Positions 15,757 through 54,586 are shown, counted from the first letter of the stretch. The stretch is DNA of 64,000 nucleotides from Syntrophales bacterium (GCA_963662405.2 CAXXKT010000001.1:1920001-1984000); one strand, 5' to 3'. Notes: a model not told the origin generated them from the sequence alone. Made by a program: numbers and translations.

Positions 15757-15819
15757 TCGTAACCCCTTGGAATCTGGAGCCGATGAGCGGATTTGAACCG
15801 CTGACCTGCTGATTACGAA
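15757..15819. repeat. Left att site: 3' part of tRNA-Thr plus start of its terminator
   Basis: 63-bp exact direct repeat of 54524-54586 (tcgtaaccccttggaatctggagcc...ctgattacgaa). Confidence 0.95.
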
Positions 15820-15876
15820 GTATTTGCTCCAGTTATATCTCATTAAAACAACTGATAAATGTGGAGAATCAATTGA

Positions 15877-16416
15877 CTACGTAGGCGTACAGACTTCGAC
15901 AATGGTCATCACAGCCCACCAGTTGATCACGTTTCCCAGTTCGGCGTGGGCGTGGGTGTGGTGGCCATAGATCTCTTTGTCGCCGGCATCGGTGATAACC
16001 GGCTCCTCGCCGCCAAGCATTTGACGAAATGCGTTCTGGATACCGGCGTTGCCTAGGTTGTTGATCGGATCGCCGAGGCCGAAACGCTCCCAGGTGAGCT
16101 GACAGCAGGGGCGGACGATCATCCAGTCGTATTTGTACATCTGATCCTGCAGCTCGCTGCCGGCATAGATCACATACGCATTGCTGACTGAGATGTCCGT
16201 CAGTGACCCGCGGGCTGTCTCGATCGAGACCGGGGAGGTGAAGTCCGAGATGTATGTCTGGGGATCCTCGTACCGCTGCTGCCACATCTCCCGGATTTCG
16301 GGGATGGCGGCGGCAATATCATGAGTATCGGTGTATTGATCAAACAGATACTCCTCGGACCGAGGAGTAATAATCCGTATGTCGTACGTTCGAAATCCAG
16401 CCCGTAACGGGATCAA
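15877..16416 (-). CDS. Hypothetical protein (possibly a gene fragment)
   Basis: 179-aa ORF with GC3-biased codons; no clear start or recognised motif. Confidence 0.45.
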   Translation of the reverse strand: MIPLRAGFRTYDIRIITPRSEEYLFDQYTDTHDIAAAIPEIREMWQQRYEDPQTYISDFTSPVSIETARGSLTDISVSNAYVIYAGSELQDQMYKYDWMIVRPCCQLTWERFGLGDPINNLGNAGIQNAFRQMLGGEEPVITDAGDKEIYGHHTHAHAELGNVINWWAVMTIVEVCTPT

Positions 16417-16630
16417 GGCATCGACGTGACAGACTGATAATCACGACGTATTGAATAGGTGAAAGCCTTGGGTGGAGCCTCTTGCTGTGGGCAATTGGCG
16501 CCCACTTGTCATGCTCCTCTCATGGCTTTTTCTTTGTGATCATCTATGCGTGTACTGACATTTCAACGATTCATCTTTCTCCCGTGTGTGGATTATCGGA
16601 TTGAGAAATCGAGAGACATCTTGTATAGAG

Positions 16631-17129
16631 ATGGCCATAAAGGTCACCGCCATATACCAACCGGACCAGTCGACAAAATGCAAACGTCCCCTCTCTCTCG
16701 CCATCGAGAGGAACCTCGACCTGAGCCAGTATCTCATCAAGCACCCCGCCGCGACCTTTTTCGTGAAGGTGACGGGGAACTCCATGATCGACGCGGGGAT
16801 CCATGACGGGGACATCCTGATCGTCGACCGTTCCCTCAAGCCCGTCGATAAGAAGGTTGTCATAGCCGTCGTGAACGGCGAGCTGACCGTGAGGAGAATC
16901 AGAGTCACCAGAGGAAAGGGGGTCCCCCTTGACGCTTTTTGCTGAAAATCGAGAGAAACACTCCGACAAGATCATGCAGGTCCTCGACAGCATCAACCGC
17001 CGGTTCGGGGCCAACACGGTCCGCTGCGCCGCCACGAACTCCACTACAAACCAAAAATGGCAAACGGTGGCCGAGTGGCGTTCTCCTTCCTATACCACCA
17101 ACGGGGACCAGCTACCCCGCGTGTCGTAA
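16631..17129 (+). pseudogene. umuD: Internally deleted umuDC: UmuD (S24) N-terminal part joined to UmuC C-terminal tail
   Basis: LDLSQYLIKHPAATFFVKVTGNSMIDAGIHDGDILIVDRS...NGELTVRR, then IMQVLDSINRRFGANTV...SPSYTT in another frame. Confidence 0.85.
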
Positions 17130-17160
17130 CAACATTACCATAAAAGGAGGTATCTTTCCC

Positions 17161-17508
17161 ATGGCCCTGAAAAAAGAAGGTCTAGTCAAATTAATCGAAG
17201 AGGAACTTGGCTTTCCCAAGAACAGATCGAAAGAGCTGGTAGAATCCGTCTTGGAGATCATGAAGCAATCACTGGAGGAGGGTGAAGAAGTGAAGATCAA
17301 TGGCTTCGGGAAGTTCTTCCTCATCGATAAGAAAGCCAGGAACGGGAGGAACCCACAAACGGGAGAGGATGTAATCATTGAACCCCGGAGGGTTGTTTCT
17401 TTCAAATTCTCCCCACAGGCGCGGGCCAAGCTCAACAGCGAATTGACATCACGCACCACTCAGAGCGGATCTGGCGCCTTCATGAAGCGAGCAACGAGAA
17501 GTCTTTAA
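17161..17508 (+). CDS. IHF-alpha/HU family DNA-bending protein
   Basis: GGAGG RBS; MALKKEGLV...VKINGFGKF...ARNGRNPQTGE...RRVVSFK. Confidence 0.9.
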   Translation: MALKKEGLVKLIEEELGFPKNRSKELVESVLEIMKQSLEEGEEVKINGFGKFFLIDKKARNGRNPQTGEDVIIEPRRVVSFKFSPQARAKLNSELTSRTTQSGSGAFMKRATRSL

Positions 17509-17521
17509 AGGAGGGATTACA

Positions 17522-18358
17522 ATGAGTGCTCGGAAACCACTTTTTAGCATCTTTACGTGTCTCTTTATTGTTGCTCTCATATTGGTTTCCCCACCTGGCG
17601 TTCAAGCTGTCGACTATTCGGAGATTCATTGCAAGCATTTCATCCACGGCTACCCAGCCGGCGTCCCACTGAGCAATGACCTCATTATTCGTGATATTTA
17701 CGCACTGTCGTCAAATGATGCGACCAAACTAGCGGATTGGGTCTGCTATCGCCTCGATAAAGAGACCGTCACCGGAGACGTGGAAACCTCAAGGAAATGG
17801 CAGGCTGATCCGTGGCTGGACGAGATCGAAACATTGGAGCCTTCTGATTATGCGGGCGCACATGCTGCCCTGCATGTAGACCGGGGGCATCAGGCTCCTT
17901 TGGGAAGCTTCAAGGGGACAAAGCAATGGGCTGATACGAACATGCTTTCAAATATAACCCCTCAAAAGGCAAACCTCAACCAGGGGCCCTGGAAGAAGCT
18001 TGAAGAAAAAGTGCGTGACCTTGCGAGGGCCGGTGATGTCGTTTATGTGATGACGGGGCCGCTATATGAGCGAGATATGCCAAAGCTGCCCGGGGCAGAT
18101 GAACCTCATTTGATTCCGTCAGGGTATTGGAAGATCATCGTCATACAACCAGACAAGGACATCAATTCCATCCGGACGGCAAGCTTCATCTTTGACCAAG
18201 AGACACCAAGAAATGATGCAGTAATCGATCATCTTTGCGCGATCAATGATATTGAGACAAAAACAGGGCTTGATTTTCTAAGAACCCTTCCCGACGAGAA
18301 GGAAGAAGAGATTGAAGGGGCAATGAATAACAGGTGGGTTGAAGCACAGTTTCAATGA
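17522..18358 (+). CDS. Secreted DNA/RNA non-specific endonuclease (NucA/Serratia family)
   Basis: Signal peptide; DRGHQAP, SNITPQKANLNQGPW..LE, IPSGYWK. Confidence 0.9.
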   Translation: MSARKPLFSIFTCLFIVALILVSPPGVQAVDYSEIHCKHFIHGYPAGVPLSNDLIIRDIYALSSNDATKLADWVCYRLDKETVTGDVETSRKWQADPWLDEIETLEPSDYAGAHAALHVDRGHQAPLGSFKGTKQWADTNMLSNITPQKANLNQGPWKKLEEKVRDLARAGDVVYVMTGPLYERDMPKLPGADEPHLIPSGYWKIIVIQPDKDINSIRTASFIFDQETPRNDAVIDHLCAINDIETKTGLDFLRTLPDEKEEEIEGAMNNRWVEAQFQ

Positions 18359-18502
18359 TCTTTTCACGCTCAGCCGGACAAACAGAAGCCCCGGATGAGA
18401 GAGGTTTTTTCACCCGGGGCTTCCGCAGCAAAAGTATCGCCAATCCCTGCAGTGTTTGTGGTTAAATTGTACCACCCTACCGTCATAAATCAAGGATTTT
18501 TT

Positions 18503-18739
18503 ATGCCCGATAAAACAGCCCATATGCTTCAGAAAACCTTGGGGATCCTGAGCAAGCTCCAAAGCTATAGAGGTGAAGACTTTACAACGGGAATGCAAGA
18601 GTACCTCCAACTTGTGGACCAGTTCTACCGGGAGAACGAACATCTTGTGGCTCGCCAGCAATATGAAGTTGCACAGACAGATCCCGAGTACTTTTTGCGG
18701 CTCCTGGTTCTAGCCGAAGAGATCCACAAGGAGGAGTGA
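18503..18739 (+). CDS. Hypothetical protein
   Basis: 78-aa helical ORF following a hairpin at ~18388-18422. Confidence 0.45.
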   Translation: MPDKTAHMLQKTLGILSKLQSYRGEDFTTGMQEYLQLVDQFYRENEHLVARQQYEVAQTDPEYFLRLLVLAEEIHKEE

Positions 18740-18753
18740 TAGGATCAACCTTA

Positions 18754-18967
18754 TCATCTACAATTGATCAGTAAGTTAAGGAGAATTTCGATGATTGTCT
18801 TTTGAAAGTCTCTCGGTAAAATTTCTTGACAATACATCATCGTAGAGTTACCTAAATAGCTGTTTTGATTTTGACGTTTTTTCTGCTTGCGAACGTCTGT
18901 AAGCAAGGAGGGATTATGGCCTGATCATCGAAGCCCTGTTTCTGAAAAAGAGAGGTGGGGCTTTTTG
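18754..18967 (+). repeat. Intergenic repeat family B, copy 3 (3' part: TTGACA, leader, hairpin + U-run)
   Basis: Aligns by eye with 22015-22094 and 27380-27603. Confidence 0.75.
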
Positions 18968-19149
18968 CTCCTTTCTAGCCACTCAACAACCATCAGGATA
19001 AGCTTTTTGAGGAAATATGGAGATGAAGCATCGCATAGCACGCCTACTGTGTTCATTGATTCTGTCCAATATCTCCCTAAATGTTTATGCAAGTGAACAA
19101 GGCAATCGAGTAACAAAAACTTTCTGGTCGATATGAAATAGGGATCAAG

Positions 19150-21747
19150 GTGTCGGTTATGAAGAAATGTGGCCCTCCTATCGTACGACTTCTCTGTTTC
19201 AGTTTTGCGATTTTTCTGCTCTTCCTAACAGCTTTCATTCTTCAGTCCGTGATTGCCCTCCGGGCTGAAGCCTCCCCAAACGCAAGTAAACCTCCCATCC
19301 TCTCCGCCTCTGAGCTTGATTACCCTCCCTTCTGCATCGTTGACGCTGAAGGCGAGCCAGACGGCTTTTCGGTGGAACTGCTGCGTGCAGCCCTGAAGGC
19401 CATGGGACGCGAGGTCACGTTCCGTACCGGGTCCCATGCCAAGGTGAGGGGCTGGCTGGAGGAAGGCAATGTTCGGGTTCTCCCCTTGGTGGCTCACACG
19501 CCGGAGCGTGAACACCTCTTTGACTTTACCTTCCCCTACATGTCTCTCCACGGCGCCATCGTGGTCAGGAAAGATGAAGAAACGATCCGAAATCTGGAGG
19601 ATCTGAGAGGGCGGCGAGTGGCCGTCATGAAAGGACATAGTGCCGAGGAGTTCCTGTGCCGTGGAGACCGGGGGATCGAGATTCTTACGGCTAACACTTT
19701 CCAAGATGCCCTCCATATCCTAACCGAAGGGCGCTGTGACGCCATCGTCATGCAGCGGCTTGTAGCGCTCCGTCTCATCCAGGAACACAGTTTAACAAAC
19801 CTCCGTGTTATCGAAAAACCCATCGAAAAATTCCGGCAGGATTTCTGCTTCGTCGTCAAGGATGGTGATCATGACGCACTGGCTCTCCTGAATGAAGGAC
19901 TCGCACTCGTCATGGCGGACGGAACTTACCGCCACCTGCATGCCAAGTGGTTCGCTGACCTCCAGCTTCCGTCCGACCGGTCCATTATTATCGGCGGAGA
20001 CTACAATTACCCTCCCTTTGAATACTTGGATGACAAAGGCCGCCCAAGGGGATTCACCGTCGAACTGACACGTGCCATCGCCCGCGCAATGGATATGGAT
20101 ATCCGGATTCACCTTGGCCCCTGGTCGGATATCGTCAGGAGCTTGGAGCAAGGCGATATTGACGTCATTCAAGGTATGTTCTACTCCCCGGATCGCGATC
20201 TTAAATTCGATTTCACCCAATCCTACTTAGCAAATCAGTACGTTGGCATTGTGCGCAAGGGCGAAGGTGATCCCCCTAACGGGACTGCTGACCTAATCGG
20301 TAAGCGCATCGTGGTGGAACGTAGTGACGTCATATACAACTTCCTGCTCGAACAAGGCTTGTCAAATCAGGTTACACTGGTTGAGACGCAGGAAGATGTT
20401 CTACGGGAACTGGCGGAGGGAAAACATGACTGCGCACTTGCCGTCAGGATCAGCTCCTTGTACCTGATTAAGAAGCACGGTTGGACTAACCTAGTTCTAG
20501 GTCGAAGTCCATTTGTTACGATGGAATACTGCTATGCTGTGCCGAACAATCGAAAGGCACTCCTGGCCCAGTTCAGCGAGGGGTTGAAGACTGTTGAACA
20601 AAGCGGTGAATACCACAGAATCCATGAAAAATGGATGGGGATTTACACGGAAAGACCGATAATCGAATTTCTGCGTTATACTGCAATGGTGGCCATTCCC
20701 CTCCTTCTCATTCTCTTGGCGATTTTTCTGTGGTCGTGGTCTCTGCGTAGAAAAGTGAGAATGAGAACAAAAGAACTGAGGGAGAGCGAGGAACGGTACC
20801 GTGCGTTTTTCGAAAACAGTATGGATGCCATTATGCTGACTGCACCTGATGGAAGAATCCTCGCCGCGAATCCGTCCGCCTGCGAGATGTTTGGCCGTAC
20901 TGAAGATGAAATCCTCGAACTGGGGAGGAAAGGGATAGTTGCTGCAACCGACCCGCAACTTACCACATTCTTGGCCCAGCGAAAAGCACAGGGGCGGGCG
21001 AGGGGAGAATTGACGCTGGTTCGAAAGGGTGGCTCACATTTTCCCGCCGAAGTAACCTCTGCCTTCTTCCGGGACAGCTCTGGAGCGACAAAGACCAGCA
21101 TGATTGTCCGAGACATGACCGACCGCAAAAAAGCAGAAGATGACCTTTTGAAAACTCTCGAACGACTCAGAAAGGCATTTGCCGCCACCATTCAGGTCCT
21201 GGTCTCAGCAGTTGAGATCAGAGATCCTTACACCGCCGGTCACCAGGTGCGGGTGGCACACCTTGCCCGTGCCATCGCCGAGGAGATGGGATTTGACGAG
21301 GAACGAATGGAAAACATACGCGTTGCCGGTCTCATTCATGACATTGGGAAGCTGTCAATCCCGGCGGAGATCCTTTCCAAGCCGACACAATTAACGCCAA
21401 TCGAATTCAGTCTTGTCAAAGAACATCCACGGAGCGGCTACGAGATACTGAAGAGCGTTGAGACCGAATGGCCACTGGCTGAAATCGTCTGCCAGCACCA
21501 TGAGCGGATGGATGGTTCAGGCTATCCACGACACCTGAAGGGAGATGAAATCCTCCTCGAGGCTCGAATCCTTGCTGTTGCCGATGTAGTCGAGGCCATG
21601 GTCTCCCATCGCCCCTGGCGCCCGGCCTTGGATATTGCGACTGCTTTGAATGACATAGAAAATAACAAGGGGATCCTTTACGATAATACCATTGTCGATA
21701 CCTGCTTGCGCTTGTTCCGGGAGAAAGGATACAAGTTACCGGAGTAA
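19150..21747 (+). CDS. Two periplasmic SBP family 3 domains + TM + PAS + HD-GYP phosphodiesterase
   Basis: DYPPF and NYPPFEY...GFTVEL SBP motifs; PAS; RDPYTAGHQ, HDIGK, HHERMDGSGYP. Confidence 0.92.
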   Translation: MSVMKKCGPPIVRLLCFSFAIFLLFLTAFILQSVIALRAEASPNASKPPILSASELDYPPFCIVDAEGEPDGFSVELLRAALKAMGREVTFRTGSHAKVRGWLEEGNVRVLPLVAHTPEREHLFDFTFPYMSLHGAIVVRKDEETIRNLEDLRGRRVAVMKGHSAEEFLCRGDRGIEILTANTFQDALHILTEGRCDAIVMQRLVALRLIQEHSLTNLRVIEKPIEKFRQDFCFVVKDGDHDALALLNEGLALVMADGTYRHLHAKWFADLQLPSDRSIIIGGDYNYPPFEYLDDKGRPRGFTVELTRAIARAMDMDIRIHLGPWSDIVRSLEQGDIDVIQGMFYSPDRDLKFDFTQSYLANQYVGIVRKGEGDPPNGTADLIGKRIVVERSDVIYNFLLEQGLSNQVTLVETQEDVLRELAEGKHDCALAVRISSLYLIKKHGWTNLVLGRSPFVTMEYCYAVPNNRKALLAQFSEGLKTVEQSGEYHRIHEKWMGIYTERPIIEFLRYTAMVAIPLLLILLAIFLWSWSLRRKVRMRTKELRESEERYRAFFENSMDAIMLTAPDGRILAANPSACEMFGRTEDEILELGRKGIVAATDPQLTTFLAQRKAQGRARGELTLVRKGGSHFPAEVTSAFFRDSSGATKTSMIVRDMTDRKKAEDDLLKTLERLRKAFAATIQVLVSAVEIRDPYTAGHQVRVAHLARAIAEEMGFDEERMENIRVAGLIHDIGKLSIPAEILSKPTQLTPIEFSLVKEHPRSGYEILKSVETEWPLAEIVCQHHERMDGSGYPRHLKGDEILLEARILAVADVVEAMVSHRPWRPALDIATALNDIENNKGILYDNTIVDTCLRLFREKGYKLPE

Positions 21748-21807
21748 AAACCCAGCCAAGGTCCACAGCAGACATCCGATATAAGATTATTATATTTTAT
21801 TTGTAGG

Positions 21808-22094
21808 AGGAAGAATCGCGCAGCGAAAAGTATTTCTCGGATACTCCTGCTGCGATCCTCCCACTGTTCACTTATCCTCACAATCGAGTGCGCCGAGAGA
21901 TTACCGATTATTTATTGAAGTCGACATTCTGGGGGAAAGTCTCTGTGTAGCAGATTTCTTTCGGTAATGCGCAGGAATGATCAAAGAAAAAAGGAAACGT
22001 GCTGTTTATTGGTGTCACCTACAACTCCTCAAAATCTTTTCAGGAGAAAATCGATGATTACCGTTTGAAAGTCTCCCCTAATATCTCTTGACAA
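21808..22094 (+). repeat. Intergenic repeat family B, copy 1
   Basis: Closely similar to 27170-27460, including a long identical core tattgaagtcgac...gtcacctac. Confidence 0.9.
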
Positions 22095-22188
22095 GGTGCC
22101 ATAATGGGGTTACTAGTCAAGCCATTCTATTGATTAGCTTTTTGTTAAGAATCACACAGGTACTCTTTTGTTACCGTTGGTGAGTATA

Positions 22189-23115
22189 GTGAAAAAAACG
22201 GTCATTCTTTTCGGTGCTGGTGCAAGTTACGGTGCAGGAGACATTCTTCCAGAGAAACCACCCCTAGGGTCGGATTTGTTCGATCGGCTGACAGCCTGTG
22301 CACCAAGAACTTGGGGTGCCCTACCATCTCCTTACCGTGATGAGTTCGTCACGAAAGGGTTTGAAGAAGGAATGGAACTTGTCTATGAGCAGCTATCGCA
22401 TCTGATTGCGCCACTGATGAGGGATATGGCTGTATATCTAATACAATACCGTCCTTTTTCATTTGAGTCAGCTTACGACCACCTACTCGAGCAATTATCG
22501 TCTCTTAGTCTTATTAACTCGGTTCTGTTCTCCACTCTCAACTACGATTGCATTCTGGAGTTTTGCCTTATTCATCGTGGTCATAAACCGTCCTATTGGG
22601 ATGAGGGTACAAACCATAACACGATTCCAGTATGGAAACTGCACGGATCGTCAAATTGGTTCACTTCTTCTGTGAAGGCGGGGTCGGGAGTATCATTTGG
22701 CAGAGGGGTTACATTTTCTGGCGGACTAGAGGCCTTCTTGGATATCGGAACAGTTGTTGAACACTGTTTGGTCAATCAAGGATTATATCCTGCAATGAGT
22801 CTTTATATGAAAGACAAACCTGTGCAGATTGCTCCCGAGCAAATCTTGCGCCTTCAATCAATGTGGAAAGACGCGGTTCTGAACGCACAGAACGTCATAT
22901 GTATCGGCGTAAACCCATTACCGGCGGACAGACATATATGGGAACCAATATCTGAAACCGATGCTCGTTTGTTTTTTGTTGGCGACAAGAACGCTTACGA
23001 CAAATGGATATCTAAGTATCGGTCAAAACCATCCATATATATTGATTGTTTTTTCGATTCAAGTGTCAAAAAACTGGTGAAGGGAGTGGCAGATGAACTT
23101 AACGGAAGCGGATAA
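22189..23115 (+). CDS. SIR2-like domain protein (defence-type)
   Basis: VILFGAGAS, STLNYD, KLHGSSNW, CIG motifs. Confidence 0.82.
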   Translation: MKKTVILFGAGASYGAGDILPEKPPLGSDLFDRLTACAPRTWGALPSPYRDEFVTKGFEEGMELVYEQLSHLIAPLMRDMAVYLIQYRPFSFESAYDHLLEQLSSLSLINSVLFSTLNYDCILEFCLIHRGHKPSYWDEGTNHNTIPVWKLHGSSNWFTSSVKAGSGVSFGRGVTFSGGLEAFLDIGTVVEHCLVNQGLYPAMSLYMKDKPVQIAPEQILRLQSMWKDAVLNAQNVICIGVNPLPADRHIWEPISETDARLFFVGDKNAYDKWISKYRSKPSIYIDCFFDSSVKKLVKGVADELNGSG

Positions 23116-23386: not shown

Positions 23387-23485
23387 ATCATTAACACTTA
23401 AAGCATTTTTTCGGGGTCTTGTATTGCAATTTTGCAGAGTTTCTTTTTTATAAAAAAAGTACGTATACATTAGTTACGGGGCAAT

Positions 23486-46461: not shown

Positions 46462-47682
46462 TCATAAAGACAATACCTCCTGCGCAAGGCGCTTTGTACC
46501 CATGTCGATGTACTCATCTTTCAATTCGATCATGACGGCTTTTCTCCCCAACTCCTTTGCCACATACGCCGTTGTCATCGATCCGCCGAACGGGTCAAGG
46601 ATCACATCACCAGGCATGCTTCCGGCTAGGATACATGGTTTGACAAGATCCGGAGGAAATGTTGCGAAGTGGGCTTCCTTATATGGCTGCGGGTTGATGA
46701 TAAAGGCCAGTGGATCACCGTCATCGTCCGTCAAAAGACCCTGCCATGATTCGAAGAACCAATCAGTGTTGCGTCTAGCCCGGAGAGTAACAACATCCTT
46801 TACCGCCGCCGAGAATGACGTGTTCTGTTTGTCCCTCCAGCCCGGTCCACGACCGAATTTAGATGACGTTCCGAGCTCCTGTTCTTTCCGGCCCGTATCT
46901 TTTGTCACATTGTGATCTATTGCCCTGTGAGATCCCGGGCCATTCATCCAACCGGAGACGGGCTTTTGAGCCTTCGGGTTGACGCCGGGCGGTACCATAT
47001 GCTCGAAGGATCGAGCGATTGTCTGTCCACCGGGACCGCCATCAGCATACTTGTGGTGATCTGATCTTCCTCGCCGCCCATACCGTGCGTGTGAATATGG
47101 TGATGCCATGATCTTTACCGATTCATGGTCGTAGAAGTATCGAGAGGACTTCGACAGGAGAAATATATATTCTATAAATTGAGCTGGTCTATCTTTACAG
47201 GATTCAGGCATCCCGTTTCTCTTCAGCCAGGGGCAGCACGAGCGTAACCACCAACCGTCTGCCTGGAGGGCCATAGCGACGCGGAAAGGTATCATGCATA
47301 GGTCTTTGGGCTTGAGTCCCAAAACACGATAATCTGATCGCGGGATGAGGGCATTATCTCTGCGACGTGATTGTGTGGTTGATCGCGCTCCTCCTCGTGC
47401 ATCGTTCCTGTTGCCGGCATACAAATCCCCCATATTCAGCCACAACGTGCCGTCTTTGTTCAAAACCCGGCGGACTTCACGGAAGATAGTCACTATCTTC
47501 TCAACATACTCTTGGGGTGTCTTTTCGAGGCCGATCTGACCCGCGACACCATAATCACGCAGTCCCCAGTACGGAGGCGAGGTTACGCAACACTGTACAT
47601 ATTCGTCCGGGAGGCTCCGGAGGATTTTGAGCGCGTCACCGTGATAGATCGTTATCCCTGCGTGGTCATAATAAGGCGTCAT
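46462..47682 (-). CDS. DNA methyltransferase, N4-C/N6-A family (SPPY)
   Basis: VTSPPYWGLRDY, HFATFPP, LDPFGGSMTT; long internal insertion. Confidence 0.9.
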   Translation of the reverse strand: MTPYYDHAGITIYHGDALKILRSLPDEYVQCCVTSPPYWGLRDYGVAGQIGLEKTPQEYVEKIVTIFREVRRVLNKDGTLWLNMGDLYAGNRNDARGGARSTTQSRRRDNALIPRSDYRVLGLKPKDLCMIPFRVAMALQADGWWLRSCCPWLKRNGMPESCKDRPAQFIEYIFLLSKSSRYFYDHESVKIMASPYSHARYGRRGRSDHHKYADGGPGGQTIARSFEHMVPPGVNPKAQKPVSGWMNGPGSHRAIDHNVTKDTGRKEQELGTSSKFGRGPGWRDKQNTSFSAAVKDVVTLRARRNTDWFFESWQGLLTDDDGDPLAFIINPQPYKEAHFATFPPDLVKPCILAGSMPGDVILDPFGGSMTTAYVAKELGRKAVMIELKDEYIDMGTKRLAQEVLSL

Positions 47683-47689
47683 TCCCTCT

Positions 47690-47983
47690 TCAACCTCCCT
47701 CACACATCGACAAGGGGAGCAATTCAACCGACATGATCACCCATCCAACTCTCAGCCCGTACGCCGGGCCGGGCAGGATAAAGATGATCCGCACAAGCAT
47801 CTTCCGCCCGGTATATTCCAGTGGCTTTCCTTCTTTCATTTCCGCGCCGGTATACTTTGTCTCCCGCAGGAGGATCAAATCGCCCGCCTGATAATCCCGA
47901 TCGTTGTACCGGATCTCCCACTCCCTCAATCCCCGGTATGATGCCTCAAACATCTCCGGGTCCGTCTTTAATTCGTGTTTCAC
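47690..47983 (-). CDS. DUF3850 / ASCH-like protein
   Basis: HELKTDPEMF...WEIRYNDRDYQAGDLILLRE...YTGR. Confidence 0.85.
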   Translation of the reverse strand: MKHELKTDPEMFEASYRGLREWEIRYNDRDYQAGDLILLRETKYTGAEMKEGKPLEYTGRKMLVRIIFILPGPAYGLRVGWVIMSVELLPLSMCEGG

Positions 47984-48410
47984 TGTTTTGCTCCCTCATT
48001 CCTCCCGAATCATTGCGATCGAGATTCTGCAGGCCAAATATGAGCAGTGGAATATCTCTCCGGTGTATCGCTCCATGGGTTTGGGTATGCAGAAAGTTGA
48101 TGTTAATGACGTCACTGCCGTCCTCCAGTATCGCGAGGCGTATCTTCTCATGCATGTCCGTCCGGGAGTCCTTGTCGGGGAAACGTACTATGTGACCGTT
48201 CGCGGGATCGGGGGGTGAAACATCCCTGCCGGCAACAATGCGGTCGAACTCATCGCGCAAGCGTTGTTCCATTTCCCTTTTATCCGGAGGGCCGATGCGA
48301 ACCAGTATCAATTCATCCGGAGGCTCTTTCATGGGTGACTGTGCTCCTTTCCCGCAAGCGGCATTGTCCCGGCCGTCTGATCCCGCATCTTTTTCCCGTC
48401 TCATCGCCAC
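47946..48410 (-). CDS. Phage hypothetical protein
   Basis: ORF in the operon with GGAGG RBS. Confidence 0.45.
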   Translation of the reverse strand: MAMRREKDAGSDGRDNAACGKGAQSPMKEPPDELILVRIGPPDKREMEQRLRDEFDRIVAGRDVSPPDPANGHIVRFPDKDSRTDMHEKIRLAILEDGSDVININFLHTQTHGAIHRRDIPLLIFGLQNLDRNDSGGMREQNSETRIKDGPGDV

Positions 48411-48412
48411 TT

Positions 48413-48796
48413 CTACCTCCCCAAAAACATAACTTCGCGGGTTTGATTTCCGAAGGACCTGGCCTCTTCAACGGTACCCATAAAGACATCAACTCTCTCG
48501 TGGAACCTTTTGTTCATCAAATCGTTGACCCTCCGGACACCAACACCATCAATATAAACCCGTCCGCCAAGCCAGTGCATCAGATCCCGGGACACGGCGC
48601 AGGTCCACCCGGCCACCGGGCCCTCCATGGTGGCGGTGTGTCCCGGATCGCTGTTCGTCTCGCATTGCCGGTTTGTGTATGCCGTGACCGTGGCGGTGAT
48701 CTCCTCGGTGGCGGAACCCCCCTTCACCTGGTGTATGACGTACACCTGGGAGGCTGCCAGGATCGCAATGAACAGGATGTTCCAGAAGAGTTTCAT
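48413..48796 (-). CDS. 3D-domain (MltA-like) protein with N-terminal TM
   Basis: TVTAYT, CAVSRDL, RRVNDLM, RVDVFM. Confidence 0.75.
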   Translation of the reverse strand: MKLFWNILFIAILAASQVYVIHQVKGGSATEEITATVTAYTNRQCETNSDPGHTATMEGPVAGWTCAVSRDLMHWLGGRVYIDGVGVRRVNDLMNKRFHERVDVFMGTVEEARSFGNQTREVMFLGR

Positions 48797-48847
48797 AGAT
48801 CGTCAACCTGCCGTGCAATAAGTCTTCGTTGTCCGTGCTAGCGGCTG

Positions 48848-49030
48848 TCATGGCGCATAAGCAATATTCCATGTCGGATGATACAATCGTGACGCCTTTT
48901 CCCCGTCAATCCGTATGCGAAGATAGGGGCCGCGTGTTCCGGTGATAACGCCGTGCCTGCCTTCACAGTTCACTCTTCCGCCACGTTTGGCGGGGACGCC
49001 ATAGGCTTTCCTGATATAATCCATGCTCAC
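48848..49030 (-). CDS. Small phage protein
   Basis: DYIRKAYGVPAKRGGRV...YHPTW. Confidence 0.65.
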   Translation of the reverse strand: MSMDYIRKAYGVPAKRGGRVNCEGRHGVITGTRGPYLRIRIDGEKASRLYHPTWNIAYAP

Positions 49031-49464
49031 CGTGTCCCCTCCGACATATCCGCACAGTCTTTTCCCGTCTTGAAAATGATGTCCTGCAATCCTGACTCGA
49101 GGATGGTGATCGCCTCGCTTTCGATCATACGGCAGTTTATGCCTGCCGCCGTTTCCAAGGCCTTATAGATCTCAATATCCGGGCCCTGGAAAACGATGGT
49201 GATCTTTTTCCCGTCTCGGGCTTCTCTTATGGCTTCCTGGGCCTCGTTTGCCGCCTGTTCGGCTCTTTTGCTTTGAATTTCATCACATCGATCCTCGATG
49301 TCCTTACGCTCCTTGGCCAGGATCCGCTCTCGGACCTTCGCCAACGCCTTTTTTCGTTCCTCGTCTTCGAGACCCCTTGCAGCCTGGTAGCACGTGCCGC
49401 ACAGCCCCTTGGCCATGATCTTGATGTCTTTCCGTCCGCAATTCTCACACGTCCCTATCTTCAT
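49027..49464 (-). CDS. Phage hypothetical protein (Zn-finger-like N-terminus)
   Basis: CENC...GLCGTCY. Confidence 0.6.
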   Translation of the reverse strand: MKIGTCENCGRKDIKIMAKGLCGTCYQAARGLEDEERKKALAKVRERILAKERKDIEDRCDEIQSKRAEQAANEAQEAIREARDGKKITIVFQGPDIEIYKALETAAGINCRMIESEAITILESGLQDIIFKTGKDCADMSEGTR

Positions 49465-49734
49465 GGCGTCCTTCCCCCTTTTTCTCCTTCACCCTCCACG
49501 GCAAATCGCGGTTTGGCCATCCTGTTGTGCCTCGGTCCCAGATGCTTCCGACATGCCGCTTACCGCCGCGGCCAAATGGCTCTCCGATCTCCGCAAGTGA
49601 TCAAGGACCTGCTCATCGGGGTCGTGTCCGTCCCTCTCTCTATCGTTGATTCTCAACACCGCACGGCTGAGTTCCATCTGTGCACATCCCAGCTCTTCTC
49701 TCCAATGCATTGCCTGGTCCCCTTGCTGTGTTAA

Positions 49735-50019
49735 TTATTTCTTCACCTCGGCATTCTCCCTTTCCAACAGTGGAAGATCCCGAGGGGAAAATGATGTTTT
49801 GTGCAATCTCCCTAATGCATCAACGTAGTCACACATCAATACAGGCTCTTGCACAAATCCGACTTCAACATTGCCGATGATAGTAGAGTGCCCGGTAACC
49901 AGCATAGTGATACCAAGGTATGTGAAGGATTCTCCCCGCTTCCTGAATGCCTCGAGCCTCTTGATTGCCTCTTCTTGCCAACTCGGTTTTTGTTCAGCTT
50001 TCTTCCTTTTCAACCACAT
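49735..50019 (-). CDS. Phage hypothetical protein
   Basis: ORF within the leftward operon. Confidence 0.5.
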   Translation of the reverse strand: MWLKRKKAEQKPSWQEEAIKRLEAFRKRGESFTYLGITMLVTGHSTIIGNVEVGFVQEPVLMCDYVDALGRLHKTSFSPRDLPLLERENAEVKK

Positions 50020-50262
50020 ACTGTTACTATTCTCCTCGCCGTGTCGTGATCCTCTGTATGTTCTGTGTCCCCAACCATTCTTCTCGCAGATGGTCCCGCT
50101 CTCCCTAGAGGATATAAAGCAGCATCAGGAACGCCCCCATCAGCATCACCAAAAAGGCGACGCATCCGAGCATGCGCCGCCAGTTGCTTCGAGGATCCGG
50201 CATTTCCAGCTTCACAAAATAGCCTGATACCTTCGCAATGACTTCCATGGTGTCTCCCTTTC

Positions 50263-50463
50263 TCATGTGTAGAGCTCACGCCGGGGAATCCCGTTGTCCG
50301 CGTCAAACTTCCCCTGATCCCAGGCCAGCGACATTTCCGGGGAGGAAAACAGGGTGAAGTGGCAGTTCCCCTCGTTCGGGCCCTGCTTTCCGCAGTCGTA
50401 CCCCGCGTTGTATGCTTCCTCCAGGGTCCGGCGTTTCGGTATGATTTCTGAAAGTGTCATCAC
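50263..50463 (-). CDS. Phage hypothetical protein
   Basis: EEAYNAGYDCGKQG...AWDQGK. Confidence 0.5.
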   Translation of the reverse strand: MMTLSEIIPKRRTLEEAYNAGYDCGKQGPNEGNCHFTLFSSPEMSLAWDQGKFDADNGIPRRELYT

Positions 50464-50493
50464 CGTCCTCTTCCTTCCGGGATGGTCCCGCTG

Positions 50494-50709
50494 TTATGAG
50501 TGTTTCTTAGACCCTCTGGCCGCGTCGGGTGGGTACGCTCCAGCCGGCGACTTTCCGCTTCCGTAATGCTTTTTCCTGAAATTGTGCACGATCCGATCGG
50601 CTTCGATCTTTGATTCGATCGGCGACTTCCTCCTCGTTTTGCCGAGGTTGAATGCATCAATGATCAGATCCAGCTTTTCATTCACTTCTTTGAACTGTTC
50701 ATTCGTCAT
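50494..50709 (-). CDS. Phage hypothetical protein
   Basis: MTNEQFKEVNEKLDLII, overlapping the end of the CII-like gene. Confidence 0.45.
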   Translation of the reverse strand: MTNEQFKEVNEKLDLIIDAFNLGKTRRKSPIESKIEADRIVHNFRKKHYGSGKSPAGAYPPDAARGSKKHS

Positions 50710-51190
50710 ATCGATCCCGCCCATCGTCAAGACAGATCTGTGCCCGCAGAAGCGCCTCGATCGCCTCGTCGATCTCGCGTGAGAGACGCTTTTTTTCGGC
50801 ATCCGTCACCCTTCCGTCGCGAAGCGACTCCGCAGCCACGGAAACGACATCCGCCGTCTCTTTCATGATATCTGATATCCGGGTTGCGATAGAGGAGGCA
50901 CTGCAATCTGTGCCACCGTCGAGTTGGATAAAGTAACCGTTTGCCTGACGGCACAACTTTTTCATTGTCTGAACCGGTTTCGTGACCCTGATGATACCGA
51001 TAAAGCCTTCGACCGATGGTTTGCCGTCCCCATTTCTATAATTCTGGTGAGTTCGCCAACTTCGCCCGACCATATTTTCAAGATCGCGGTCAGAATAGCC
51101 GTTGAAGTTTGCCTCCCGCATCAGATCCTTCAGAATGTCTTCCGCACAATCCCTGTGAGCCTGCTTGATTCCGGTCTGTGATCTTGTCAT
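50699..51190 (-). CDS. Phage regulatory CII-like protein
   Basis: GGAGG RBS; C-terminal ESLRDGRVTDAEKKRLSREIDEAI pattern. Confidence 0.7.
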   Translation of the reverse strand: MTRSQTGIKQAHRDCAEDILKDLMREANFNGYSDRDLENMVGRSWRTHQNYRNGDGKPSVEGFIGIIRVTKPVQTMKKLCRQANGYFIQLDGGTDCSASSIATRISDIMKETADVVSVAAESLRDGRVTDAEKKRLSREIDEAIEALLRAQICLDDGRDRYDE

Positions 51191-51527
51191 TGCCTCCCTC
51201 CCGAATATCGTGTAAATGCGCCACCTTTCCCCCTGTCAATTGACTACGACCCGCCGTATCATGCGAGTCAAGGGGAAAGAGATGGTCAACGAGATTGTGA
51301 TCGATACGCAAAACGTCACTACGGAGATTATCGAAAACCGGCCGGAGCAGCTCCGCGAGCTGGAGCATGGCCCGTTCGTTGCCGCTGTGGTAGGACGTGA
51401 GCAGTTGAGAGACCCGGGCCCGGGACACGGGCGGGTTCATGTTCTGCGCGAGGATTTCATGCGTCAGCCCGCCGTAGGTGATCAGCGTCGTGATCATATT
51501 TCTATTGATAATGCGTTTTTGTTTCAT
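51090..51527 (-). CDS. Cro-like HTH protein
   Basis: GLTHEILAQNMNPPVSRARVSQLL; divergent from CI. Confidence 0.55.
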   Translation of the reverse strand: MKQKRIINRNMITTLITYGGLTHEILAQNMNPPVSRARVSQLLTSYHSGNERAMLQLAELLRPVFDNLRSDVLRIDHNLVDHLFPLDSHDTAGRSQLTGGKVAHLHDIREGGNDKITDRNQAGSQGLCGRHSEGSDAGGKLQRLF

Positions 51528-51801
51528 TATAGTGACCCTTACCTCATGTTAGCTGGTGCGTTTGCGGAGTCTTTGAAAGAAACGGCACGGTATCAGAGAG
51601 CCCTTCGGTACGGTATAGCCGTTGACATTCTGAGCTGGCCAAAGAAAAAGCGGTCTCCGCGGACTCCGGTAGAGATCCGTCAACTGGAAGATCCGCTGAA
51701 TGTAAGCAGCGGTGAGGGGTAAGAACATTAACTGAAATAACGTTGTTCATGATGCCCTCCGTTGTGAGTTTGTTAGTACGGTGAGTAAATAATCGGAAAA
51801 A

Positions 51802-52491
51802 ATGATAATGTCAAGAAAAAAATCGAAATTTTCGAATAAAACATCAGATATTATCGATTATATTAAAAGGATAAAAGGCTTAAAAACTGACACAGAATTT
51901 GCTAAAATATTAGGAATACGTCAAAATACGGTATCTACCTGGAGAGGAAAAGATTCCTTTCCCGTAAAAAAAATAATCAAATTTTGCGATAAAGAAAATA
52001 TATCTCTTGCGCCGTTCGTAGGTTCTGGTAACAGGTTCGACAATCCCCCAAGCCATACAAACCCATCCAACCATACCGATGACAACTATTTCATCAATGC
52101 TATGATGGCGCATCCAATTCCTATCGTAGGAACTGTTCCCGCTGGTTTTCCCCAACTACCCCCTGACGAAGATCATGTCATTGATTATCTTTCGATTCCC
52201 GACGTGCCGAGAGATTCATTTGCTATGATCGTATCAGGCGAAAGCATGTCTCCCACAGTCAGAAGCGGAGATTATGCCGTTTTTCAAATTGCCGGAGGAG
52301 GAGATATAAAAAGCGGTGATCTTGTCATTGTCAGTAATGAATGGAATGAGTTGATTCTCAAGCGGTTTAGAAAAAAAGATCAAAAGATTGTACTAACCAG
52401 CGACAATCCAGAGTACCATGCTATAGCTCCAAATGATCACTACAGAATTATTGGTAAAGTAATCAAGGTGATAAGGGACATTAAATTCTAA
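51802..52491 (+). CDS. CI-like repressor (HTH + S24 peptidase)
   Basis: EFAKILGIRQNTVSTW; VPAG cleavage site; GESMSP, LILKR, SDNPEY. Confidence 0.92.
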   Translation: MIMSRKKSKFSNKTSDIIDYIKRIKGLKTDTEFAKILGIRQNTVSTWRGKDSFPVKKIIKFCDKENISLAPFVGSGNRFDNPPSHTNPSNHTDDNYFINAMMAHPIPIVGTVPAGFPQLPPDEDHVIDYLSIPDVPRDSFAMIVSGESMSPTVRSGDYAVFQIAGGGDIKSGDLVIVSNEWNELILKRFRKKDQKIVLTSDNPEYHAIAPNDHYRIIGKVIKVIRDIKF

Positions 52492-52643
52492 AATAAATTA
52501 ATGCTGCACGTGTCAAAGAAAAACAACGGCTGCAATCATCCAGGAAAAGACGTCTGCTGAGGCGGTTATAAAGACACCTGTATCATCCTCACCGGTGCGG
52601 CCTCTGGTCTGGATCGGAAATTGTCCCCAATGGAAATACAGAC

Positions 52644-53663
52644 ATGAGCGTCCGTAGAATAGGTGAGAACAAATACCAGATCGACGTGTACGAAGCCGGC
52701 CGGAAGGGGAAGCGGATCCGCAAAATCATAGAAGGAACCGAGGTCGATGCAAACCAGCTCGAACGCGACATAAAGCTGGCGCTGGGCCAGACACCCTACA
52801 AAACCGAAACGATCGCTGCCTTGATCGAGCCGTACCTCGAATGGGTAAAAACCGATCAGTCCGACCGGACCTACACCGAAAAATACAAAATGCTCAATGG
52901 GCACATACTCTCATTCTTTGGCAAATTCATGCCCCCGGAAATCACCAGACGGCACATTGACGCCTACAAAAAATACCGTCTGGACGAGATAGGCAAAAAG
53001 CACCGGCAGATCAATCTCGAAATCACCACACTCTCGGCCATGATCAGGTGGCATTACGATCTTGAAGGCATCGACGACGCGCCGCTGCCGCGCCACAAAA
53101 AACTCCCCTACAAACGTCCCCTCCCGCAATACCTCTCCCGGGAGGAGGTTGATCGATTCATTGGGGCCATGTCGATATTCCATGTGGCGTTCTGCGGGTG
53201 CATGTATTACGCCGGAATGCGGTTTCAGGAGGTTGCGACCCTCAAGCTGGGGTCACTACACGAGACGCACATCAAAGTGATGGGGAAGGGCAGCAAGATA
53301 CGCTTGGTGCCCATCTCCGGGACGCTCCGTGGTATCCTGGACAGATACCTCGAGGGACGGGCACAGCTCGCGGAGAAGAATGAAAAGATTGCCGGGTCCG
53401 ATCTGGTATTTCCATCGGCAAAGACCGGACGACCGCTGACCAGTATCAAAACAGCGATCCGACTGGCTCTGGGGCGTGCAGAAATCGGCCGGAAAATCAC
53501 ACCCCACATGCTCCGGCACGCATTCGCGACCCATCTGCTCGAGGGAGGAGGCGACCTGAGATCTATCCAGATGCTGCTGGGACACGCTCAAATCAGTACG
53601 ACACAGATCTATACAAACGTCGCCATGCCCCACTTGAGACACACCGTCGAACTCCTCAAGTAA
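52644..53663 (+). CDS. int: Tyrosine recombinase / phage integrase
   Basis: [38 protein letters not shown]. Confidence 0.93.
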   Translation: MSVRRIGENKYQIDVYEAGRKGKRIRKIIEGTEVDANQLERDIKLALGQTPYKTETIAALIEPYLEWVKTDQSDRTYTEKYKMLNGHILSFFGKFMPPEITRRHIDAYKKYRLDEIGKKHRQINLEITTLSAMIRWHYDLEGIDDAPLPRHKKLPYKRPLPQYLSREEVDRFIGAMSIFHVAFCGCMYYAGMRFQEVATLKLGSLHETHIKVMGKGSKIRLVPISGTLRGILDRYLEGRAQLAEKNEKIAGSDLVFPSAKTGRPLTSIKTAIRLALGRAEIGRKITPHMLRHAFATHLLEGGGDLRSIQMLLGHAQISTTQIYTNVAMPHLRHTVELLK

Positions 53664-53713
53664 AAAGCGTAGTCAATATTGACTACAAAAAAGGAGCTAC
53701 GACAAATCGTAAC
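53542..53713 (+). repeat. Direct repeat copy 1 (int 3' end + GTAGTCAATATTGACTAC)
   Basis: Near-identical to 54349-54531. Confidence 0.9.
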
Positions 53714-53746
53714 TCAGAAGGCATCAAACTCTGCAAAGGACCCTAT

Positions 53747-53995
53747 TTGCCATATCCCTACAGTTCGAATATTGAAGGGGCCAAGTACGGTGAAATAAGA
53801 GAACTGAGGATTCAACATAAGGGGAAACCATACAGAGTCATTTACGCCTTTGATCCCCGAAGGGCCGCTATTCTGCTGATCGGCGGCAGGAAGACCGGGG
53901 GAAAACGGTGGTACGAAAAATACGTACCCCTGGCAGAAAAGATTTATGAGGAGCATTTGAAGTCGCTAAAAGAAGAAAAAGGAGAAGTACCATGA
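53747..53995 (+). pseudogene. 5'-truncated RelE/Gp49-like toxin
   Basis: PYSSNI...IRELRIQHKGKPYRVIYAFDPRRAAILLIGGRKTG; the usual N-terminus and an RBS are missing. Confidence 0.75.
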
Positions 53996-54312
53996 GCAAA
54001 CCTTATTCTATATTGAGAGAGAAGATGAAACCCGCGGCAAGAAAAAAGGCATCAGAGAAAACCAAGGCGATGCTTGAAGCTATGCCATTACAAGAATTGC
54101 GTCAGGCCAGAAATTTGAGTCAGGAACAATTGGCACAGACATTGTCTGTTAACCAGGCTGCGGTATCAAAGATTGAGCATCGGACAGATATGTATATCAG
54201 CACATTGCGGAACTTTATCAAGGCCATGGGGGGAGATCTTGAGATTATTGCTAAATTCCCTGATGGGTCGATCCCGATCAATCAGTTTAAGAGAATTGCT
54301 GGGAAACGGTAG
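53992..54312 (+). CDS. XRE-HTH antitoxin
   Basis: LQELRQARNLSQEQLA...VSKIEHRTDMYISTLRNFIKAMGGDLEI. Confidence 0.9.
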   Translation: MSKPYSILREKMKPAARKKASEKTKAMLEAMPLQELRQARNLSQEQLAQTLSVNQAAVSKIEHRTDMYISTLRNFIKAMGGDLEIIAKFPDGSIPINQFKRIAGKR

Positions 54313-54348
54313 AACAATCGATTCATATCTTCTTAAGTCCTATAGGAT

Positions 54349-54531
54349 AGGGAGGAGGCGACCTGAGATCCATCCAGATGCTGCTGGGACACGCTCAAAT
54401 CAGTACGACACAGATCTACACAAACGTCGCCATGCCCCACTTGAGACACACCGTCGAACTCCTCAAGTAAAAAGCGTAGTCAACCGTAGTCAATATTGAC
54501 TACAAAAAAGGGGTTACGAAAAATCGTAACC
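54349..54531 (+). repeat. Direct repeat copy 2 (orphan int 3' fragment)
   Basis: Encodes [39 protein letters not shown] a second time. Confidence 0.9.
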
Positions 54532-54586
54532 CCTTGGAATCTGGAGCCGATGAGCGGATTTGAACCGCTGACCTGCTGATTACGAA
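54524..54586. repeat. Right att site
   Basis: Identical to 15757-15819; overlaps the tRNA 3' half. Confidence 0.95.

Follow-up and report, generated by a model that had tools for sequence, protein, structure and literature searches.

The window analysed here, a stretch of 64,000 nucleotides (nt) from the genome of a Syntrophales bacterium (GCA_963662405.2 CAXXKT010000001.1:1920001-1984000), contains between positions 15757 and 54586 an integrated element, W, that has the integrase, lysogeny switch, replication genes and intact large terminase of a phage, together with some 21 kb of signalling and defence cargo and no recognisable gene for a head or tail. Two further elements in the same genome, A and B, are built alike and, once recent insertion sequences (IS) are discounted, are of nearly the same length, and a third relative, C, looks like a complete prophage. 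Our preferred explanation, for and against which the evidence seems to us evenly poised, is that W is a phage-derived element of phage length that has lost its virion genes and is now a satellite-like defective phage that would be packaged by its own terminase into the proheads of a sister phage.

Gene content of the element

An exact 63-bp direct repeat at 15757-15819 (attL) and 54524-54586 (attR) brackets the element and sets the att-to-att distance at 38,767 bp. The 31-nt core of this repeat occurs twice in the window, where 100 shuffles give an expectation of zero. The right copy lies within an intact tRNA-Thr(cgt) gene on the minus strand (54542-54617), of which it forms the 3' part, and the left copy is a displaced 3' part of tRNA-Thr. 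The translations of 71 open reading frames (ORFs) from 12.1-57.9 kb were scanned against Pfam and the 58 ORFs of the element against PHROGs. These scans and the exact repeat bear out what an earlier reading, made from the sequence alone (the sequence-only reading), had listed: both att sites and the distance between them, int, CI and CII genes, a primase-helicase, a TerS-like gene, an intact GpA-type TerL and, beyond terL, only three small genes and then about 21 kb of cargo.

The large terminase gene terL (37940-39850, minus strand) encodes an intact GpA-type protein of 636 amino acids (aa), with matches to GpA_ATPase (1.9e-56), GpA_nuclease (4e-47) and phrog_15 (2.7e-145). The TerS-like gene (39847-40734, minus strand, 295 aa) matches phrog_57 at only 2.5e-7, and its position directly upstream of terL is conserved in relatives. 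The 808-aa primase-helicase (43806-46232, minus strand) combines a Zn-ribbon DnaG domain with Toprim, D5_N, DUF5906 and Pox_D5, and the tyrosine integrase (52644-53663, plus strand, 339 aa) matches Phage_integrase at 5.8e-32. In the lysogeny switch region (50699-52491), a CII/CP76-like activator (50699-51190, minus strand) and small minus-strand ORFs face a CI repressor with an S24 peptidase domain (51802-52491, plus strand), both regulators being recognised by Pfam and PHROGs. After terL come p110 (37614-37946, minus strand, 110 aa, overlapping the end of terL), p93 (37032-37313, minus strand, a 93-aa CxxC...CxxC protein) and p126 (36634-37014, plus strand, a 126-aa ORF resembling small helix-turn-helix (HTH) proteins, with weak PHROG matches), then a pair of RelE-like toxin and HTH antitoxin (35984-36624, plus strand, by Pfam and PHROGs) and the cargo, which extends to 15820. 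GC contents range over 0.42-0.52 for the cargo, 0.55-0.62 for the backbone and 0.51-0.59 for the flanks.

No capsid, portal, protease, connector or tail family was found among the ORFs of the element in either scan, and NCBIfam, applied to 24 unknown cargo ORFs, added nothing relevant; the absence of recognisable head and tail genes noted in the sequence-only reading was thus borne out. A protein atlas returned only unnamed clusters for the unknown cargo ORFs. One cargo ORF of 558 aa is of portal size and was considered as a hidden portal, but was rejected on its fold: in the predicted model (predicted local distance difference test score, pLDDT, 81) the best matches are CorA channels, though with weak template-modelling (TM) scores.

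Related copies in the same genome

Searches of the element against its own genome by tblastn and blastn defined four further copies, A to D (the contigs concerned are called C1 and C2). The genome encodes four GpA-type TerL proteins (94-98% aa identity) but a single lambda-type portal (Phage_portal_2), which belongs to copy C, a complete-looking prophage of ~33.2 kb (C1, about 2,346.4-2,379.65 kb). The TerL of C is 98.4% identical to that of W and its TerS is related; after terL, C continues with a 100-aa homologue of p110, a gpW-like adaptor, a lambda-family portal, a protease-capsid fusion, a cement protein, a tape-measure protein and a tail chaperone. Neither 11- to 13-nt seeds nor a repeat finder revealed att sites for C.

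Copy A is bounded by 48-bp repeats at 228516-228563, where tRNA-Arg(cct) has its 3' end, and at 268415-268462; the repeats of copy B, also of 48 bp, are found at 2626372-2626419, where tRNA-Arg(tct) has its 3' end, and at 2668027-2668074. Both carry the backbone of W at 92-95% nucleotide identity, with TerL proteins 94.5% (A) and 98.1% (B) identical to that of W, and in both p110 and p93 are followed, as in W, by cargo without a structural gene. This cargo comprises in A an XhoI-type restriction-modification pair, ThsB (2.1e-111), an AriA/OLD-like ATPase and DUF5677 and DUF3800 proteins, and in B the Gabija proteins GajA (1.3e-224) and GajB (4.3e-185), PDC-M45 candidates, AbiEi, a 1303-aa ORF and IS copies. 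Copy D (C2:345.5-352.0 kb, L018) is decayed: terS, the ParB-methylase and the primase are all truncated, and terL is missing. Note that D directly adjoins a GGDEF-EAL gene 59% identical to the one in the cargo of W; cargo of this type may, as the sequence hints, have long been linked to the backbone.

The complete phage C departs from W, A and B at one common base inside p110 (window position ~37673), and the last ~25 codons of p110 are a variant common to these three. p93, whose family comprises 267 representative clusters, occurs in W, A and B (90% aa identity of W to A and B) and is absent from C; p126 is common to B and, in part, to A. Between terS and the primase, a 441-aa ParB-domain DNA methyltransferase (41060-42385, minus strand, by Pfam and PHROGs) is followed by p147, a Cys-rich protein with a weak HTH match, and p296 (42395-43809, minus strand), backbone genes common to A, B, C and D. 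The early region (46232-50802, minus strand) holds a 77-aa ORF, an N6/N4 methyltransferase (46462-47727) and small ORFs, and a 3.3-kb block of it (46.2-49.5 kb) is found in W, A and B at 96-99% identity and is missing from C.

A and B also have a common att-side end of 4.3 kb at 98.8% identity, including ~800 bp that are 83% like the right end of C. As they share both flanks, A and B therefore differ only in the cargo between them, in the manner of a hotspot. Directly outside attR of A, an ~800-bp piece (C1:268500-269296) is 84% like the right end of phage C, and its orientation is the one that int, att and end would have if a C-like genome were circular. A second prophage of the C type, once integrated in tandem at tRNA-Arg(cct), probably left it behind.

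The integrase of W is only 28-30% identical to those of A and B, while A and B agree at 70% of their integrase nucleotides. The CI HTH domain of W is unrelated to that of C, and the repressors of A and B are alike (48%) in their C-terminal parts only; with such different repressors, co-residence with a helper would be possible. Integrase, att site and end module would be contiguous in the circular form, and a swap of this cassette by phage-type recombination could explain the pattern. All three pairs of att repeats are perfect (63, 48 and 48 bp, 159 bp in total) despite synonymous divergence (dS) of 0.06-0.19 in the genes shared among the elements, which suggests that integration is younger than the divergence of the elements; gene conversion between att copies would look alike.

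Upstream of terS lies a non-coding block of 346 bp (40735-41080, minus strand) that might contain a cos or pac site or a late promoter. Its terS-proximal part, 40735-40865, is present in all five copies, with 110 of 131 positions invariant, including 54 of the 56 nearest terS, and a diverged tandem second copy is found in W (40914-41080), B and D. The block contains two inverted repeats whose stems are kept and whose loops vary. A function as RNA was considered and dropped, as no Rfam match appeared up to E 0.1 and folding is no better than that of shuffles (z -1.2); the idea that the block is more conserved than the genes was likewise rejected by a comparison of conservation. From its position, we regard the block, to which the cos-like site of the sequence-only reading corresponds, as a candidate recognition site of the terminase (cos or pac).

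Length, selection and recombination

The shell-less elements measure 38,767 bp (W), 39,899 bp (A) and 41,655 bp (B), a raw spread of 2.9 kb. Without recent IS the lengths become 38,767, 38,669 and 39,151 bp in spite of unrelated cargo; note that this subtraction was decided after the data had been seen. It removes from A and B a 1,230-bp IS-like element and from B, in addition, a 1,274-bp IS3 copy. The former, bounded by terminal inverted repeats, contains a 306-aa ORF that belongs to no known family, and its two copies in the genome (C1:247300-248529 and 2632809-2634038), 100% identical, both lie in the cargo of A and B; the latter is one of 13 full-length copies at 95-100% identity. C, at ~33.2 kb, has neither the 3.3-kb early block nor the 3.3-kb AMP-ligase end module. 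Its stretch between the p110 breakpoint and its own end module measures ~18.9 kb, about as much as A and B carry in net cargo (~16-18 kb). The earlier suggestion that cargo keeps the element near phage length gains support from these values (38.8, 38.7 and 39.2 kb after IS subtraction); that packaging imposes the length is something we infer.

Ratios of nonsynonymous to synonymous divergence (dN/dS), estimated by the Nei-Gojobori method with a script, are 0.145 (W-A), 0.165 (W-B) and 0.160 (A-B) for terL and 0.093-0.135 against C, so that all six pairs fall within 0.09-0.17 and relaxed selection on terL, which the sequence-only reading had named as a refuting outcome, is not seen. For terS the values are 0.15-0.27 and for the primase 0.11-0.15. 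p93, found in the shell-less copies, has a dN/dS of 0.11 at a dS of 0.35 between W and A or B. In W, A, B and C all backbone genes are free of interruptions, the apparent stops being alternative C-termini.

Relatives in other genomes

The TerL proteins of the nearest cultured phages are at most 31% identical to that of W, and relatives at 58-75% identity occur in IMG/VR, in JGI metagenomes and in two genome records labelled Syntrophus. Twelve of these loci extend for at least 2 kb after terL and were assessed, the remaining ones being too short. A lambda-type portal follows 0.7-7.5 kb downstream of terL in nine of the twelve (L027-L031, L036, L037, L039 and L047), some of these nine representing the same phage in two collections. 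The other three (L041, L042 and L044) lead into host-like or unknown genes, no portal appearing within 4-10 kb. L037 has 7.4 kb between its terL and portal genes (11908-19321), which encode a FIST-PAS sensor kinase, a response regulator and a PAS hybrid kinase.

A GpA-type TerL was found in 36 of 277 genomes of the order, and five genomes with several copies were checked for portals. TerL and portal genes stand at 5 to 5 in G180, 2 to 2 in G165, 3 to 2 in G177, 2 to 1 in G209, where the extra TerL match is weak, and 2 to 1 in G236, where the extra TerL lies on a contig edge. The excess of four TerL genes over one portal is so far peculiar to the genome of the window. In G180, the distances from the ATPase-domain match to the portal match are 1.8, 5.0, 8.2, 8.5 and 9.6 kb, as compared to 2.0 kb in C, so that four of the five loci carry about 3-7.6 kb of extra DNA between the two genes. 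Given such extra DNA in relatives, the junction of terL and portal is thus a cargo hotspot of this lineage of GpA-terminase phages in Syntrophales.

Proposed life cycle and alternative explanations

If W is mobile, we envisage that DNA damage would inactivate the S24-type CI repressor, that Int would excise the element and that the primase-helicase would replicate it. TerS and TerL would then recognise and cut the site upstream of terS and pump one unit length (~39 kb) into the proheads of a sister phage, co-induced or infecting, such as C. This phage would also supply tails and lysis, and the particle would deliver the element to a new cell for integration at tRNA-Thr. Swappable cargo would have taken the place vacated by head and tail genes, which occupy ~19 kb in C: signalling genes, a TIR cluster and toxin-antitoxin pairs in W, classical defence systems in A and B. 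The length would in this way stay within the capacity of the borrowed head. Such an element likely arose when cargo accumulated between terL and portal, at the hotspot seen in related complete prophages, and the structural block was then lost while a compatible sister phage shared the cell. Helper packaging with a length limit would explain the constant size, and helper-dependent packaging into sister proheads seems the most economical mechanism. Indirect indications for it are the recurrence in A and B beside a single portal, the near-constant length, the selection on backbone genes and the differing immunity, and it is further favoured by the contrast between the truly decayed copy D and the intact backbones of W, A and B.

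More tentatively, and leaning slightly away from so general a statement, we suggest that the three elements represent an undescribed class of satellite that is motor-only and full-length. Such satellites would possess TerS and TerL with their recognition site, an SOS-type switch and replication of their own but no virion gene, and would be held at helper length by an exchangeable cargo of 17-21 kb of defence and signalling genes. They would have been caught a few percent away from their helper, that is, in a transition from phage to satellite driven by the growth of cargo between terL and portal.

A number of observations weigh against a mobile satellite. The identities among the copies are mosaic: C and B are equally close to W in terL and primase, the closest counterpart of A in ParB-methylase and p296 is C, and W, A and B agree at 99% in some blocks. 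Recombination with working phages therefore continues and could mimic selection, so that gene conversion might keep terL looking selected without any function in W. The signalling genes in the cargo of W are host-like and have recombined with chromosomal paralogues, which suggests long residence. The block upstream of terS is conserved no more than the surrounding genes, and no helper-manipulating gene was recognised in the element. The putative helper C is only ~33 kb long, a search for att sites around it gave none, and three IS copies border its right end. Outside this genome, nine of the twelve assessable related loci keep their portal, and the shell-less architecture was found in the genome of the window only. 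Relatives of p93 were found neither in metagenome contigs nor among 50,697 phage records, and in viral contigs one of eight candidate stretches passed tblastn, without yielding a locus.

All seven public sequence runs consist of assembled contigs only, of which we compared X1-X4 on 46000-64000 and X3-X6 on 9000-25000; in these regions no contig bridges an empty att site, and neither an attP joint nor a pile-up of molecule ends was found. There is also no signal of induction, the depth of W-specific sequence being ~4.6 and that of the flanks 2-5. Runs X3-X6, which come from another study, cover the host flanks at low depth and leave the element uncovered, and a loose end at 15819 in X6 resembles a continuation of tRNA-Thr that differs from the one in this genome; neither observation was counted as evidence.

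Much of this fits a serious alternative that we nevertheless consider on the doubtful side, namely that W, A and B are immobile, domesticated remnants. Three sister prophages would have lost the structural block next to a cargo hotspot and been kept for defence and signalling genes that benefit the host, their terminase, replication and switch genes remaining intact through recency or through gene conversion from C. The mosaic backbone, in which terL and primase of W are equally close to those of B and C and some blocks of W, A and B agree at 99%, the conversion of a HD-GYP gene of W by a chromosomal paralogue, the depth without induction signal and the lack of the architecture in other genomes can all be read in this way, as can the IS copies within the cargo of A and B, and defective prophage genes reportedly do evolve under purifying selection (Bobay et al. 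2014, cited in PMC11389934). Domestication requires, however, either three independent losses of a whole module at near-equal lengths or a single loss that spread to three att sites with three integrases, and such a spread would already mean mobility. Moreover, p93, limited to the shell-less copies, is more diverged (dS 0.35) than terL and yet selected, no backbone gene is broken in W, A or B while copy D exemplifies ordinary decay, and the att repeats are perfect.

We consider it improbable that W is a one-off product of specialised transduction of the lambda dgal type, in which an aberrant excision took ~20 kb beside a former att site in place of the late genes and the resulting molecule was packaged once and integrated, without a lasting life as a satellite. 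The order in dgal phages is att, int, switch, replication, cos, terminase, novel joint, foreign DNA and att, and the map of W follows it at phage length; part of the cargo consists of host-like signalling genes, and the C-like end remnant directly outside attR of A is as in a tandem double lysogen. The cargo nevertheless has a lower GC content (0.42-0.52) than the flanks, what A and B carry are classical mobile defence systems and not chromosomal neighbours, and a common variant after terL combined with three different cargoes and att sites would need later diversification. Finally, that ~13-kb near-identical prophage backbones misled the assembler into joining terL to unrelated DNA is conceivable in an environmental-sample assembly with four repeats at 92-98% identity, but we give it hardly any credence, as the elements end at separate tRNA genes, each with a perfect att repeat of its own, the junction regions differ by 10-12% between copies and run into different cargo, and the summed contig depth of 17-25 in the shared part versus ~4.6 in W-specific sequence fits four to five single copies.

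The sequence-only reading had left the choice between a new type of satellite with a full terminase of its own and a decayed prophage with a replaced structural module. As history, the replacement stands, for the element is clearly derived from a C-type phage; the status as a satellite packaged into sister proheads is supported in part. Of the three findings named beforehand as speaking against it, none was made: two of the three other full TerL copies in the genome (A and B) have no structural module and one (C) has it, terL shows no relaxed selection in six of six pairs, and no cargo ORF proved to be a capsid or portal in Pfam, PHROGs, NCBIfam or the fold of the 558-aa protein.

Comparison with known satellites

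Packaging of defective prophages by their sisters has a precedent in E. coli O157 Sakai, where morphogenesis-defective lambdoid prophages are described as being packaged through co-resident prophages (Asadulghani et al. 2009, PMC2669165). There, as here, several related lambda-like prophages reside in one genome and complementation by a sister is the proposed route to particles. Some of the Sakai prophages have morphogenesis defects together with an intact terminase and a cos-like region resembling a sister's, and W is like them with a TerL 98.4% identical to that of C and an upstream block with 110 of 131 positions invariant. The damage described for the Sakai prophages is piecemeal, whereas in the present case, known from its sequence alone, the whole head and tail block is gone, 17-21 kb of cargo stand in its place and three copies are alike in state and length.

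The phage-inducible chromosomal islands that form capsids (cf-PICIs; de Sousa et al. 2023, PMC10085698; bioRxiv 10.1101/2022.09.08.507074) are portrayed as carrying terS and terL, as W does, and as depending on their helper for part of the virion. They have, however, their own capsid, head-tail adaptor and connector genes and borrow tails only, while W has none of these genes, is ~39 kb long and uses a CI/CII switch. With PICIs in general, including the Staphylococcus aureus pathogenicity islands (SaPIs), W shares an integrase, a primase-type replication gene of its own, a small terminase gene and accessory cargo that includes defence genes. PICIs are given in the same account (PMC10085698) a median length of 9.5 kb and a maximum of 28 kb, an AlpA, MerR or Stl regulator and typically no other phage genes. 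As set out there, the PICI model of SatelliteFinder places an integrase at one end, and W agrees (Phage_integrase 5.8e-32). It departs from that model in having CI with S24 and CII/CP76 in place of AlpA, MerR or Stl, with no AlpA or MerR match in the 71 ORFs, and in having 38,767 bp and an intact terL where small size and no phage genes beyond terS or a capsid-morphogenesis gene are expected (PMC10085698). Compared to PICIs as so described, W is four times longer, carries terL and, along ~9 kb of its backbone, matches a resident phage at 92-98% identity.

P4-like satellites, by the description in PMC4936722, integrate into tRNA genes, carry a D5/alpha-type primase-helicase and have no head, tail or lysis genes; W has the corresponding integration site and domains (D5_N, DUF5906, Pox_D5 and Toprim). 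The defence hotspot between conserved flanks reported for P4-like elements (Rousset et al. 2022, PMC9122126) can be likened to the relation of A and B, within the scope of that report. P4 itself is described as an 11.6-kb element without terminase that shrinks the capsid of its helper and shares little sequence with P2 (PMC4936722). Unlike P4, W has TerS and TerL, is of phage length and is a near-twin of its candidate helper. P4-like satellites also carry genes for capsid size (Sid, Psu) and for cross-talk with the helper, and lack a terminase of their own; W has a terS-like gene and terL and shows no match to a capsid-related family. A complete lambda-like phage with a GpA terminase has portal, capsid, protease and tail genes after terL, which are absent in W, A and B and present in C. 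By the definitions laid down in PMC10085698, the element is neither a PICI, a cf-PICI nor P4-like.

The term proto-hitchers has been proposed for defective prophages that are becoming satellites and that must co-reside with their helper (PMC11389934). W resembles them in its reductive origin from a phage, and here co-residence would be allowed by different repressors and att sites; proto-hitchers are put forward there as a concept, for which the present elements would be a concrete case with three diverged members. Satellites described in PMC10085698 and PMC4936722 have either no large terminase (P4, PICI) or a terminase together with their own capsid (cf-PICI), are small and share little sequence with their helpers, and the origin of satellites from phages is for this reason an open question. 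If W, A and B are mobilised, three diverged, intact elements of phage length beside a near-identical complete phage would be a living intermediate of the transition from phage to satellite, and they would show that, under a packaging length limit, the loss of structural genes can open up ~20 kb for defence systems as cargo. Satellite finders would miss such elements as too long and too phage-like and prophage finders would score them as incomplete prophages, and the size of the class could therefore be underestimated. If they are immobile, they are an ordinary, though unusually clean, case of the domestication of prophages into defence islands.

Cargo and neighbouring genes

Next to attL, an end module (15877-18739) consists of ORFs of 179 and 157 aa on the minus strand, a HU-type DNA-binding protein (16939-17508, plus strand, Bac_DNA_binding 1.2e-25), a non-specific DNA/RNA endonuclease (17522-18358, plus strand, Endonuclease_NS 3.6e-43) and a 114-aa ORF. 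Its part 16571-18739 recurs at C1:299245-303094 (89% nucleotide identity) and at C1:119191-122041 (80%), and the latter recurrence begins 1.6 kb from a tRNA-Arg(ccg) gene. The module may be a shared end module of several tRNA-integrating islands.

The cargo proper begins with an 865-aa signalling protein of the HD-GYP type (19150-21747, plus strand, with two SBP_bac_3 domains, PAS and HD_5 by Pfam), followed by ORFs of 315, 97 and 293 aa (22168-24367, plus strand), of which the first has a weak match to SIR2_2 (7.6e-4, below cut-off) and the other two belong to no known family. A second HD-GYP-type protein of 766 aa with four PAS domains (24756-27056, minus strand, by Pfam) is 65% identical over its length to a paralogue on C2, while 1450 nt in the 3' part of its gene (24706-26155) are 95.7% identical to it. 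The 216 bp after this gene (24497-24712) are repeated at 31992-32210 with 99% identity, beside a 3' fragment of a HD-GYP gene (32191-32496, minus strand, by Pfam and blastn) that is a pseudogene remnant. We take the repeats and the C2-like segment as signs of recombination among signalling paralogues within the cargo. A 908-aa protein with PocR, two PAS, GGDEF and EAL domains (32601-35327, minus strand, by Pfam) lies nearest the RelE-like pair.

Between the signalling genes, a four-gene cluster (27733-31786, plus strand) encodes the 558-aa CorA-like membrane protein, ORFs of 156 and 164 aa and a 400-aa TIR-domain protein, with matches to TIR_2 (6.2e-18) and PDC-S66 (1.1e-13). The 558-aa protein has at least 209 homologues, all unnamed, in Vibrio, Pseudomonas, Halomonas, Desulfobacteraceae and others. 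The cluster looks like an undescribed candidate TIR-linked defence system.

Several cargo genes are preceded by a repeated element of ~200 bp with at least 33 copies in the genome. It contains a promoter-like TTGACA-17 nt-TAGAGT motif followed, after ~110 nt, by a strong terminator hairpin with a run of T, the stem of which is retained with few compensatory changes; no Rfam match was obtained. In the window it occurs at 18756-18966 (plus strand), at 27380-27597 and in part at 22039-22094, and further copies lie at L006:16171-16338, L007:2253-2328 and 5709-5869, and L011:2404-2591 and 4607-4794. In W, A and B, it stands 60-240 bp upstream of plus-strand cargo, namely the HD-GYP, SIR2-like, CorA-like/TIR cluster, ThsB, DUF5677 and GajA genes. 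To judge from this arrangement, it could be a portable leader for expression or attenuation, or a module boundary in the exchange of cargo.

At the other end of the element, a Gp49/HigB-like toxin and a HTH antitoxin (53747-54312, plus strand, by Pfam and PHROGs) separate the integrase from attR. In three genomes of the same genus (G031, G032 and G034) the alanine racemase gene alr adjoins tRNA-Thr(cgt) in three of three examined, and a clean attB could not be reconstructed from them, the far flank being non-syntenic. In G034 (L060:968-14160), the tRNA-Thr(cgt) beside alr holds a different integrase, followed by PLD, helicase, DrmE-like and methylase genes in a DISARM-like arrangement. This tRNA gene is an integration hotspot within the genus. 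The alanine racemase ORF next to W (54861-56804) encodes 647 aa, of which the two racemase domains end at residue 373, the ~270 C-terminal residues having no family match.

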